From a virus (taxonomy: Duplodnaviria > Heunggongvirae > Uroviricota > Caudoviricetes): 5,452 bases of DNA. The DNA lies in the IMG/VR virus record IMGVR_UViG_2778261005_000009; one strand, given 5' to 3'. Positions 2,940 through 5,452 of this stretch are shown one piece after another. Position 1 is the first letter of the stretch. Each line of letters starts with the position of its first letter. The notes beneath the pieces were generated by a model. It was not told the DNA's origin, searched no databases, and saw only the letters and a list, made by a program, of their open reading frames with translations. Both the position numbers and the translations under genes were made by a program.

Positions 2940-3497
2940 ATGAGCACTATTACCAGAGAACGCGCGGAGATTAAATCATACATCACAGGCTTCCTGAGCG
3001 ACTCGGCGCACGATAACAAGTCTTCAGACAGCCTGCTGGCTAATGTGTTTCGTATCGCGCTGGCATCACTGGAAGCAGAGCCGATAGCAATGGTAGTGCC
3101 TGATGAAATGGATTTGCTTACCTGCCATCTCGACGGTGTAACTAAAACATATGCTGATGGCTGGAACGCCTGCCGCGTCGCCATGCTTCAGGCCGGAAAC
3201 TTTCGGGAAAATAAGAATTCGTCAACCAACAATTTTCGGGAAATCTCGGAAACGTCAACCAGATCTCCGATAACTCTGGATGGCTGGATAAGCTGTACTG
3301 AGCGAATGCCTGAAAAGAGCCAGAACGTGCTTATTTCGATGAATATCGATAGCGAGGCTGGGCCATTAATATATTCCGCACGCTATCTCGGAGGCACGTT
3401 CCGGCGCGGAGGTATAGCAGTTAGTCCGGGTAATGATCTTAGGCAAGCAACCCACTGGATGTCGCTACCAGAACCGCCGCAGGAGGTGAATCAATGA
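2940..3497 (+). CDS. DUF551-like phage protein (185 aa)
   Basis: ATG 2940 preceded by AAGGA (2927-2931) at 8-nt spacing; stop TGA 3495-3497. The C-terminal segment (ITLDGWISCTERMPEKSQNVLIS...YLGG..F) resembles the DUF551 domain as I recall it. The linker contains an in-frame tandem duplication (see repeat feature). Confidence 0.75.
   Translation: MSTITRERAEIKSYITGFLSDSAHDNKSSDSLLANVFRIALASLEAEPIAMVVPDEMDLLTCHLDGVTKTYADGWNACRVAMLQAGNFRENKNSSTNNFREISETSTRSPITLDGWISCTERMPEKSQNVLISMNIDSEAGPLIYSARYLGGTFRRGGIAVSPGNDLRQATHWMSLPEPPQEVNQ
3198..3263 (+). repeat. Imperfect in-frame tandem duplication (2 x 33 bp) inside the DUF551-like gene
   Basis: aaCtttcgggaaaATAAGAATTcgtcaaccaAC (3198-3230) versus aaTtttcgggaaaTCTCGGAAAcgtcaaccaGA (3231-3263); encodes NFRENKNSSTN / NFREISETSTR. 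Confidence 0.6.
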
Positions 3498-3577
3498 CCT
3501 GGCCTGAAGCATTCACAACGGTAGGAATTGCGATGGCGGTGGCGCTGGTGGTGTATTCGATTTGCCGCTGGGGATAA
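3494..3577 (+). CDS. Putative 27-aa hydrophobic micro-protein, translationally coupled to the DUF551-like gene
   Basis: ATG 3494 forms an ATGA overlap with the upstream stop and is preceded by AGGAGG (3481-3486) at 7-nt spacing; stop TAA 3575-3577. Product MTWPEAFTTVGIAMAVALVVYSICRWG is a single predicted TM helix. It falls below the ORF-track length cutoff. The SD may be coincidental, since it also encodes residues of the upstream protein. Confidence 0.35.
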   Translation: MTWPEAFTTVGIAMAVALVVYSICRWG

Positions 3578-3612
3578 AAACGGTTTGCGGGAAAAGGATA
3601 GTTAAGTAGAAT
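3574..3612 (+). promoter_or_regulatory. Candidate promoter for the hok mRNA
   Basis: Candidate -10 elements GATAGT (3597-3602) or TAGAAT (3607-3612), with a weak -35 (TTGCGG 3585-3590 for the latter). Placement is constrained by the 5'-3' complementarity, which requires the transcript to start at or before about 3613. No strong consensus match. Confidence 0.25.
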
Positions 3613-3630
3613 TGCTGCGGGTGCTTGAGG
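3613..3630 (+). promoter_or_regulatory. 5' element of hok mRNA complementary to its 3' end (tac/fbi-like long-range pairing, 5' partner)
   Basis: tgctgcgggtgcttgagg (3613-3630) pairs antiparallel with cctcaacgcacccgcg (3993-4008): 6 bp, a one-nucleotide bulge (C3999), then 10 bp including one G-U. Confidence 0.45.
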
Positions 3631-3664
3631 CTATCTGCCTCGGGCATGAACACCAACGGCAGAT

Positions 3665-3739
3665 AGAGAAAAGCCCCAGTTAACATTACGCGTCCTGCAA
3701 GACGCCTAACATTAATCTGAGGCTCAATCTATGAACGGC
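3665..3739 (-). ncRNA. Putative Sok-like antisense RNA (type I antitoxin), about 75 nt
   Basis: Minus-strand sigma70-like promoter (below) would start transcription near + coordinate 3739. The transcript is antisense to the upstream in-frame ATG (3731) and its SD (GAGG 3719-3722). It ends in a terminator-like structure on the minus strand: outer stem ccucag/cugggg (3717-3722 with 3674-3679, one G-U), inner stem gcguc/gacgc (3690-3694 with 3701-3705), then U-tract cuuuucucu (+ 3665-3673). Ends are approximate. Confidence 0.4.
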
Positions 3740-3745
3740 AAATCT

Positions 3746-3774
3746 AGGTTAGCCTCTTACGTGCCGAAAGGCAA
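3746..3774 (-). promoter_or_regulatory. Candidate promoter of the Sok-like antisense RNA
   Basis: On the minus strand: -35 TTGCCT (+ coordinates 3774..3769), 17-nt spacer, -10 TAACCT (3751..3746). The -35 overlaps the hok SD region on the opposite strand. Confidence 0.35.
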
Positions 3775-3787
3775 GGAGAAGCAGGCT

Positions 3788-3943
3788 ATGAAGCAGCAAA
3801 AGGCGATGTTAATCGCCCTGATCGTCATCTGTTTAACCGTCATAGTGACGGCACTGGTAACGAGGAAAGACCTCTGCGAGGTGCGAATCCGAACCGGTCA
3901 GACGGAGGTCGCTGTCTTCGTAGACTACGAATCTGAGAAGTAA
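3788..3943 (+). CDS. hok: Hok/Gef-family type I toxin (51 aa membrane peptide)
   Basis: ATG 3788 preceded by AGGAG (3774-3778) at 9-nt spacing; stop TAA 3941-3943. Product MKQQKAMLIALIVICLTVIVTALVTRKDLCEVRIRTGQTEVAVFVDYESEK aligns along its length with plasmid R1 Hok ([52 protein letters not shown]) and is very close to chromosomal HokD/RelF as recalled. The track ORF 3731..3943 is an in-frame upstream extension (ATG 3731), possibly a mok-like leader reading frame. Confidence 0.9.
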   Translation: MKQQKAMLIALIVICLTVIVTALVTRKDLCEVRIRTGQTEVAVFVDYESEK

Positions 3944-4062: not shown

Positions 4063-4407
4063 ATGAAAAAGGTATTGATTGCAGCACTTATTTCCGGTGT
4101 GTCTTTTGGCGCTTTTGCACAGCAGGGTGGTTTCCAGGGGCCAGAAGCAGAGCGTTCAACAGTAGCGCAGGCAAAAGAACTGAAGGATGATGCATGGGTT
4201 ATCCTTGAAGGGAGCATCGTTAAAAAAGTGGGTGATGAACGTTATGAGTTTCGTGACAATAGCGGGACAATTGTCACGGATATTGATGACAGCGTATGGG
4301 CCGGGCAGAATGTTTCTCCGAAAGACAAAGTAAGAATTGAGGGTGAAATTGATAAAGACCTGAGCAGTGTTGAAGTTGATGTAAAGGCACTGAAATTATT
4401 AAAGTAA
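4063..4407 (+). CDS. YgiW/YdeI (BOF, bacterial OB-fold) family periplasmic protein with signal peptide (114 aa)
   Basis: ATG 4063 preceded by AGAGGA (4051-4056) at 6-nt spacing; stop TAA 4405-4407. N-terminal signal peptide MKKVLIAALISGVSFGAFA followed by QQGGFQGP, then C-terminal IVTDIDDSVW...VRIEGEIDKD...VEVDVKALKLLK, which matches the BOF/YgiW pattern. Confidence 0.88.
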   Translation: MKKVLIAALISGVSFGAFAQQGGFQGPEAERSTVAQAKELKDDAWVILEGSIVKKVGDERYEFRDNSGTIVTDIDDSVWAGQNVSPKDKVRIEGEIDKDLSSVEVDVKALKLLK

Positions 4408-4801: not shown

Positions 4802-5452
4802 TGTGCGGGTATTACTTCGACCTGTTCTGGTTCCGGAACTCGGGCTGGTGGTCCTTAAGCCCGGTCGTGAATCATTGCCAGTTTTTCATCGCGGCAGGGT
4901 GCTGGTGGAGCCGGAACCGAAAAACATGCGGGCGCTGCCATCTGGAGCGGTTCCTGCTGTTCGCCAGCCGCTGGCGGAAGATAAATCACTGCTGCCATTT
5001 TTCAGCGATGAGCGGGTGATTCGTGCAGCTGGCGGCGCTGGTGCACTGTCTGACTGGTTATTACGTCACGTGAAATCCTGCCAGTGGCCACACGGCGATT
5101 ATCATCACAGCGAAACCGTTATTCACAGTTACGGTGCTGGCGCAATGGTGTTGTGCTGGCACTGCGACAACCAGCTGCGCGACCAGACCTCCGAATCACT
5201 TGAGCAACTTACTCAACAAAATCTGACAGCCTGGATGATTGACGTCATACGCCATGTAATGAATGGCACGCAGGAGCGGGAATTATCGCTGGCTGAATTA
5301 TCCTGGTGGGCAGTCTGCAATCAGGTGGTGGACGCATTACCTGAGGCAGTATCGCGTCGCTCTCTGGGATTACCGGCGGAAAAAATCCGCTCCGTATACC
5401 GTGAAAGCGACATCATACCGGGAGAACAGACCGCCACCAGCATACTGAAGCA
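4770..5452 (+). CDS. DUF968-like protein with HNH-like Cys/His motif, 3'-truncated by window end
   Basis: Frame 0 is open from the stop at 4716-4718 to the end of the window and is absent from the ORF track because it has no stop. First ATG is 4770 (weak SD); alternative GTG 4749. Translation ..VKSCQWPHGDYHHSETVIHSYGAGAMVLCWHCDNQLRD.. contains a C..H..HH..CxxC arrangement reminiscent of HNH zinc-binding motifs. The DUF968 assignment is from memory of prophage YdfU-like proteins. Confidence 0.65.
   Translation, partial: MPATVSASGGNVRVLLRPVLVPELGLVVLKPGRESLPVFHRGRVLVEPEPKNMRALPSGAVPAVRQPLAEDKSLLPFFSDERVIRAAGGAGALSDWLLRHVKSCQWPHGDYHHSETVIHSYGAGAMVLCWHCDNQLRDQTSESLEQLTQQNLTAWMIDVIRHVMNGTQERELSLAELSWWAVCNQVVDALPEAVSRRSLGLPAEKIRSVYRESDIIPGEQTATSILK

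Follow-up and report, generated by a model that had tools for sequence, protein, structure and literature searches.

A Nearly Fixed In-Frame 33-nt Duplication in the Linker of a Prophage DUF551 Protein: Probably a Flexible Tether and a Joint for Domain Shuffling

Introduction

Repeats within coding sequences raise a simple question, namely whether the number of units is free to change and whether such a change matters to the protein. The DNA considered here, referred to as the window, is a stretch of 5,452 nt which, judging from its open reading frames and its Pfam and Rfam matches, is part of a lambdoid prophage. On its plus strand, at 2940..3497, the window carries the gene of a 185-aa protein that the ORF list and the neighbourhood mark as an Eaa/Ea22-like accessory protein, and within this gene a unit of 33 nt stands twice in succession. 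A preliminary description of the locus regarded the pair, with its identical ends and different centres, as an old duplication followed by divergence or replication slippage, and proposed that differences in linker length between prophage copies could modulate the function of the protein. A comparison of homologous DUF551 genes was suggested to see whether the number of units varies. This study addresses what the duplication is, how it behaves among its relatives and what it may be for.

The Gene and Its Surroundings

The genes of the window begin with a DnaT-like protein, a lambda-P-like replication protein, a DUF1627 protein and a helix-turn-helix protein, and continue with two small proteins without known function, a DUF4014 protein, the DUF551 gene (2940-3497), hok/sok and a BOF/YdeI-like gene. 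In one O157:H7 genome the prophage adjoins rspAB/ynfA. The hok/sok type I toxin-antitoxin locus (3619-3943) lies directly 3' of the DUF551 gene, with the Rfam sok match (RF01794, 105.6 bits) at 3619-3793 and the Hok/Gef ORF at 3731-3943, and it is followed by the BOF/YdeI-like stress-tolerance gene at 4063-4407.

Some smaller features surround the gene. A hydrophobic ORF of 27 aa, MTWPEAFTTVGIAMAVALVVYSICRWG, occupies 3494-3577, beginning at an ATGA that also contains the DUF551 stop codon; it has no PHROG match, and homology among the mosaic relatives described below frequently runs across it, up to about 3577-3582. Chi octamers, GCTGGTGG, occur four times in the 5.4 kb, at 3544-3551, 4844-4851 and 4901-4908 (+) and at 5434-5441 (-), the first of them just downstream of the DUF551 gene. 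The E. coli chromosome holds on average roughly one Chi per 4-5 kb, and the window looks denser. A perfect 12-nt inverted repeat, ATGCTTCAGGCC / GGCCTGAAGCAT, at 3183-3194 and 3501-3512, flanks the linker and the DUF551 domain, and in DNA of this length about one such pair would arise by chance.

RefSeq already has an annotation for the gene and labels its product 'DUF551 domain-containing protein' (WP_000104474.1). Copies that are 100% identical are present in 503 complete E. coli genomes, mostly of O157:H7 and other EHEC serotypes, O111, O103 and O145 included.

The preliminary description had placed the repeat between an N-terminal region and a DUF551-like C-terminal domain. The protein is indeed a true member of the Pfam family DUF551 (PF04448), with a match at aa 115-181 (3282..3482, +) that spans profile positions 1-68 of 68 at E=5.3e-20 and 72.5 bits, the gathering cut-off being 22 bits. 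The N-terminal region, aa 1-86 (2940..3197, +), closes with the conserved motif GWNACRVAMLQAG; it has no Pfam match and resembles the PHROG families phrog_660, phrog_60 and phrog_5117, all of which are function-unknown. A single AlphaFold2 model of low confidence (mean pLDDT 64.6), built from an alignment of 42 sequences, predicts helices at aa 2-20, 32-45 and 72-86, coil at aa 87-112 (block-mean pLDDT of about 37-43) and a beta-rich domain at aa 113-180 (block-mean pLDDT 70-90) with strands at aa 129-175. Given the predicted coil at aa 87-112, the repeat would sit in an unstructured connector between the N-terminal part and the DUF551 domain. This linker is polar, being rich in N, S, T, E and R. 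When the model was compared with the PDB by Foldseek, no match reached E<=0.001, and a profile search of PDB sequences gave just one weak match, to a TBPIP-family protein (E=0.014); neither search assigned a fold to DUF551.

The Repeat and Its Statistics

The first unit, AACTTTCGGGAAAATAAGAATTCGTCAACCAAC, lies at 3198..3230 (+) and encodes NFRENKNSSTN (aa 87-97), and the second, AATTTTCGGGAAATCTCGGAAACGTCAACCAGA, lies at 3231..3263 (+) and encodes NFREISETSTR (aa 98-108). The two are adjacent, in frame and identical at 23 of 33 bases, so that the duplication stands with the coordinates and frame first described. Likewise, the description of identical ends and different centres is borne out by two perfect blocks at the ends of the units, a 10-nt direct repeat, TTTCGGGAAA, at 3201..3210 and 3234..3243 (+), and a 9-nt direct repeat, CGTCAACCA, at 3220..3228 and 3253..3261 (+), which stand in the same register. 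Seven of the ten mismatches between the units fall at unit positions 14-22, a clustering that random placement equals in 2,666 of 200,000 trials (about 0.013).

A seed-and-extend search reports the pair as a repeat of 31 nt with 74% identity and a spacing of 33, and no other adjacent repeat of period 9-60 within the window is better. Tandem Repeats Finder (TRF) did not call the pair even with its minimum score lowered to 30, because there are just two copies at 70% identity. The resemblance exceeds chance. Among 500 dinucleotide-preserving shuffles, five equalled the repeat score at any period and none gave 23/33 at period 33, and two exact blocks of at least 9 nt in one register within 40 nt were seen in none of 1,000 mononucleotide shuffles.

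Just beyond the 27-aa ORF, at 3579-3594, the sequence AACGGTTTGCGGGAAA resembles the start of the unit like an incomplete third copy, with an identity of 81% to the reference across 16 nt; the resemblance is probably due to chance.

Copy Number among Relatives

The comparison of homologues gives a clear picture of the unit number. About 100 of the best 120 protein homologues share the pair NFRENK[NDG]SSTN then NFRE[IT][SAP]ETST[NRSC], preceded by many different N-terminal sequences and followed either by DUF551 directly or by other modules, and about 17 of the 120 have an unrelated linker. All 80 IMG/VR loci retrieved by the linker peptide carry two units. A scan of IMG/VR that does not depend on the units, using the spacing between ATGCTTCAG (MLQ) and TGGATAAGCTG (WISC), gave at least 99 loci with the exact two-unit spacing and, among the matches listed, no one-unit NFRE linker and no three-unit spacing.

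The complete genomes of E. coli point the same way. Among 5,426 genomes, 714 contain the 93-nt core, at 1,485 places in all and at no more than five in any one of them. Single-unit forms are carried by at least 21 complete genomes and by 3 draft assemblies, or about 1.4% of copies against about 98.6% with two units when the 1,485 two-unit places are set against the at least 21 single-unit genomes. Queries for a three-unit junction matched nothing in the complete E. coli genomes. A flank-independent three-unit pattern, TTTCGGGAA-N24-TTTCGGGAA-N24-TTTCGG, run over IMG/VR and 241 million JGI metagenome records, recovered unrelated 33-bp arrays only, and these matches were rejected as expanded forms of the linker. 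A synthetic single-unit peptide profile retrieved only 10 short fragments from a set of 5.8 billion proteins, a search ill-suited to queries of 45 aa.

The unrelated arrays are an observation in their own right: 33-bp tandem arrays containing TTTCGGGAA occur in diverse viral and metagenome contigs (L237, L240, L248, L260, L263, L270 and others), several of them with at least three near-perfect copies.

From these counts, with 1,485 two-unit places, rare one-unit forms and no three-unit form, the copy number changes by rare loss only. Two units are essentially the fixed state, and relatives differ in the type of linker cassette and in the flanking modules, not in the number of units. Frequent gains and losses among close relatives, the mark of a variable-number tandem repeat or contingency locus, were not seen. 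The preliminary description had named a complete lack of single-copy forms as the outcome that would count against it; since single-unit alleles were found, that outcome did not arise. The expectation of variation in copy number that matters to function does not hold, as the number is otherwise nearly invariant at two. With about 98.6% of copies in the two-unit state, 503 identical alleles and no three-unit form, linker-length variation as a modulator of function finds no backing.

Single-Unit Alleles

The rare losses are precise. One single-unit allele of the window gene (P0005, 174 aa), found in the same prophage context in 3 assemblies, has the DNA of the window gene minus exactly 33 bp. 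It shares with the window gene a prefix of 271 nt and a suffix of 264 nt, whose sum is 525+10, and the ambiguity of 10 nt is TTTCGGGAAA. The break of this precise 33-bp deletion therefore falls within the perfect 10-nt repeat, and slippage, as first suggested, does take place, here between ends that the two units have in common.

A 42-mer that can seed only across a one-unit junction detected the TTTCGGGAAA-type junction in 17 complete E. coli genomes, in at least four gene backgrounds other than that of the window. A second type, NFRENKNSSTS-SPATKDGW (allele L235), keeps the centre of unit 1 and is found in at least four genomes; its junction is the product expected from deletion between the copies of CGTCAACCA. 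Thus both single-unit products predicted from the 10-nt and 9-nt repeats are observed, the TTTCGGGAAA-type being commoner and the CGTCAACCA-type rarer, and altogether single-unit forms occur in at least five gene backgrounds besides that of the window. We infer that they arose by slipped-strand or microhomology deletion. The want of expansions is not accounted for by slippage alone.

Two sequences with changes of a single nucleotide were also encountered. An allele from Logan assemblies (P0029) has lost 1 nt in the GGG of unit 2 (3234-3243), giving the frameshifted product NFRKSRKRQPDLR*, and an IMG/VR locus (L179) has an apparent 1-nt insertion in unit 1. The first of these prompted the idea of a programmed frameshift at CGGGAAA, which was rejected, the deletion being absent from all 5,426 complete E. 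coli genomes. The heptamer CGGGAAA is not a canonical slippery sequence in the zero frame.

Mosaic Flanks and the Conserved Block

The relatives of the window gene are mosaics, and the part that they hold in common is short. When 95 distinct loci were compared with the window by blastn, the HSPs that contain the linker started at 3075-3175 and ended at 3276-3582, and the segment common to all of them is 3175-3276 only. Together with a codon alignment of 33 distinct sequences, in which unrelated sequence sets in at differing points on either side, this defines a minimal conserved DNA block at 3175..3276 (+) comprising AMLQxG, both units and the first codons beyond. The block of about 100 bp is roughly 90-100% identical between alleles. 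Partial megablast matches of other DUF551 genes to the window gene are centred on its positions 209-377, corresponding to the linker and its edges.

The flanks have been reassorted extensively. Classifying the 12 residues on each side of the conserved region gave 15 context classes upstream and 14 downstream, in 48 combinations with 69 complete 2x2 sets, an analysis that resolves to the linker and the adjacent conserved DGWISCSERMP segment taken together. This pattern is as expected from repeated homologous crossover in or next to the block. The differentiated pair of units travels as one cassette within a block of about 100 bp that is joined to many unrelated modules, and it is not a variable-number repeat.

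According to PMC3945230, E. coli temperate phages swap small gene fragments more frequently than whole modules, and efficient pairing needs a segment of at least 31-34 bp with RecA and 23-27 bp with Red-beta. The block is several times longer than these segments of 23-34 bp, which is long enough for pairing, and it shows the features of a mosaic-boundary patch, being a high-identity block with unrelated flanks in several combinations. From these sequence patterns, 3175-3276 appears to act as a homologous-recombination joint for the exchange of modules.

A different perfect direct repeat of 10 nt, GATGGCTGGA, has its copies at 3156-3165 and 3279-3288, in the same frame at a distance of 123 nt. 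Each copy is translated as DGW (DGWNAC... and DGWISC...), and the conserved block lies between them.

Alleles, Age and Spread of the Cassette

The cassette is known in 36 peptide alleles and 34 DNA alleles, and all of them have the same two differentiated units, NFRENKxSSTN and NFREIxETSTx. The cassette therefore spread after the duplication had arisen and its centres had diverged, and the age that the preliminary description ascribed to the duplication agrees with the presence of this pair in every two-unit relative examined.

Across the alleles, the unit ends are nearly invariant and positions 5-7 are variable, with 0.94 variant codons per codon at the ends and 2.2 at the centres. Non-synonymous variants outnumber synonymous ones both at the ends (11 vs 4 over 16 codons) and at the centres (10 vs 3 over 6 codons), and nucleotide diversity across the block is low. 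The low diversity and the non-synonymous excess would fit a young, widely spread cassette under weak constraint, with the ends somewhat more constrained. The clustered mismatches and the steadier ends, which a pure spacer would not need, give a hint that NFRE and S-T-N are constrained, or that the centre was replaced.

A diversity-generating retroelement was considered on account of the AAY-rich variable centres. It was rejected as a source of the variants: there is no reverse transcriptase among the 10 principal ORFs (Pfam), the units are just 33 nt long and adjacent, and variants are also seen at T, C and G, not specifically at adenine.

A scan of one genome per species did not find the cassette, and it gave no pre-duplication ancestor; it returned three partial matches to the DUF551 start only, in two Escherichia genomes. 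Outside E. coli phages, the cassette was seen only in the Salmonella phage-plasmid SJ46. In IMG/VR, at least four alternative cassettes stand between the AMLQ and SPVTPDGWISC flanks (L088, L091, L097, L150, L159, L113, L148 and L104), namely G[AS][KQ]PVSQ[TN]YKLN[EK]LSGN, GKSEQPQNAQQNIPENIPGGN, GKFRDLSQPVDPQVADYEKTMLQAGN, which repeats MLQAGN, and a form of 41 aa.

Alternative Explanations

The simplest reading would be that two neighbouring low-complexity coding stretches resemble each other by chance, as the silence of TRF and an identity of just 70% might suggest. The shuffle tests (5/500 for score, 0/500 for 23/33 at period 33 and 0/1,000 for two blocks in register) and the deletion alleles, which use exactly the TTTCGGGAAA and CGTCAACCA blocks, exclude chance for practical purposes and leave it a vanishingly small probability. 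Those same alleles speak for a variable-number linker, in which slippage readily changes the number of units and the resulting lengths tune function between prophage copies: single-unit alleles have appeared in several backgrounds, and a breakpoint has been mapped within perfect microhomology. The unit counts largely refute it, since the single-unit genomes, at least 21 of them, compare with 1,485 places of the two-unit core. Furthermore, the window allele is identical in 503 genomes, a three-unit form is absent from the E. coli genomes, IMG/VR and JGI metagenomes searched, and the units are differentiated and each conserved separately, all of which makes this reading very unlikely.

Alternatively, selection could be acting on the peptide, with NFRE....STN given twice as a short linear motif, be it for a host or phage partner or as a processing site, and kept at the level of the protein. 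In favour of this, the 36 alleles differ at positions 5-7 but hardly at the ends of either unit, the mismatches that separate the units are concentrated centrally, and two-unit forms dominate though deletion is mechanistically easy. Against this, the peptide corresponds to no known motif and has no match in the literature searched, and low diversity with more non-synonymous than synonymous variants even at the ends is more readily explained by a young cassette than by strong purifying selection. Many relatives have a wholly different cassette between these flanks, and genes with a single-unit allele have stayed intact, which argues against a strict requirement for a repeated motif, and we consider the motif doubtful. 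A further reading is an element at the level of DNA or RNA within the coding sequence, be it a pair of protein-binding sites formed by two TTTC-NN-GAAA half-palindromes 33 bp apart, an RNA structure or a dedicated recombination signal. Conservation of the block at the nucleotide level across otherwise unrelated genes would agree with such an element, as would the near-palindromic nature of TTTCGGGAAA and the distance of about three helical turns between its copies. We nevertheless reject an RNA or regulatory element, because RNA folding of 3170-3290 is unremarkable (z=0.36; 124 of 200 shuffles gave an equal or better fold) and neither a promoter-like or terminator-like site nor an Rfam match is present in the linker. 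The unit ends also carry synonymous variants (AAC/AAT, TTT/TTC, ACC/ACA), and wherever the sequence was translated it lay in frame within genes of the DUF551/linker family. A role as a DNA or RNA element is hence highly improbable.

Proposed Role of the Linker

The explanation that we favour, and hold to be probably correct, is that an ancient and fixed in-frame duplication forms a flexible tether and that the conserved coding block serves at the same time as a recombination joint for domain shuffling. The polar segment of 22 residues, predicted to be disordered, would tether the helical N-terminal region to the DUF551 domain and, as a flexible spacer, would decouple the C-terminal domain from the N-terminal region. 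At the level of DNA, the conserved block may offer RecA or phage Rad52-like recombinases enough homology, and through it these recombinases could swap N- and C-terminal modules between co-resident prophages.

A bolder version supposes that the block with its repeated NFRE...STN ends is kept as a selected intragenic splice joint, or as a bipartite docking site for a host factor. If the splice joint were real, co-resident prophages would recombine effector domains onto different N-terminal scaffolds, and if the docking site were real, a host factor would be common to all these mosaic proteins. It would agree with the steadier ends, the clustered mismatches, the retention of two units despite easy deletion and the presence of up to five copies per genome; all the same, we rate it as improbable.

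Returning to the flexible tether within a conserved joint, the biological importance of the pair by itself is little, since the gene is annotated and the linker cassette is fixed. An old and almost invariant two-unit cassette, present in well over 1,000 shuffled E. coli prophage genes, is nothing out of the ordinary, and it is no device for tuning length. Its value is that of a countable textbook example, both of domain shuffling over a short homology patch and of precise deletion between direct repeats of 9-10 nt. The cassette could serve as a marker of module exchange among EHEC prophages, and its boundaries provide cut sites for structural and functional work on Eaa/Ea22-type proteins and on the uncharacterised DUF551.

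Comparison with Known Systems

Slipped-strand mispairing between short direct repeats is a classical form of RecA-independent deletion. The single-unit alleles resemble its products in that one repeat and the intervening sequence are lost precisely, with an ambiguity equal to the repeat length. Here there are just two copies, both predicted products are seen and the reciprocal duplication was not found.

Among phage proteins, the nearest likeness is to Ea22 of phage lambda and its variants in Stx phages, which consist of a helical N-terminal part, a mobile connector and a swappable C-terminal domain (PMC10834534). The Ea22 variants are mosaic, and one of them, V2, carries DUF551, which has been described as a portable domain (PMC10834534). 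The window protein is likewise predicted to have a helical N-terminal part and a mobile connector, and it carries DUF551; neighbours of its single-unit relatives are annotated 'ead/Ea22-like', and one phage record (H41) annotates its match as Ea22. The two differ in location, as the window gene has the replication genes (DnaT-like and P-like) before it and hok/sok behind it, rather than lying between exo and xis, and the NFRE repeat linker is not mentioned in PMC10834534. They differ also in the N-terminal signature, since a Pfam-A scan of the window protein at E<=0.01 gave DUF551 as its sole match and thus did not detect the Ead/Ea22-like signature (IPR025153, per PMC10834534). The same Pfam domain is shared with EaA/Eaa of P22-like and Stx phages and with YfdS of prophage CPS-53, and many of the matches are annotated EaA or Eaa. 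Most of the P22-like and Salmonella matches share the DUF551 start only (gene positions 325-377), without the NFRE cassette.

The conserved block finds its closest counterpart in the mosaic-boundary patches of lambdoid phages, which are likewise short blocks of high identity amid many unrelated combinations of flanks (PMC3945230, PMC2327257). Compared with these, the putative patch in the window is intragenic, falls where one domain gives way to the next and occupies the same place as the linker with its repeat.
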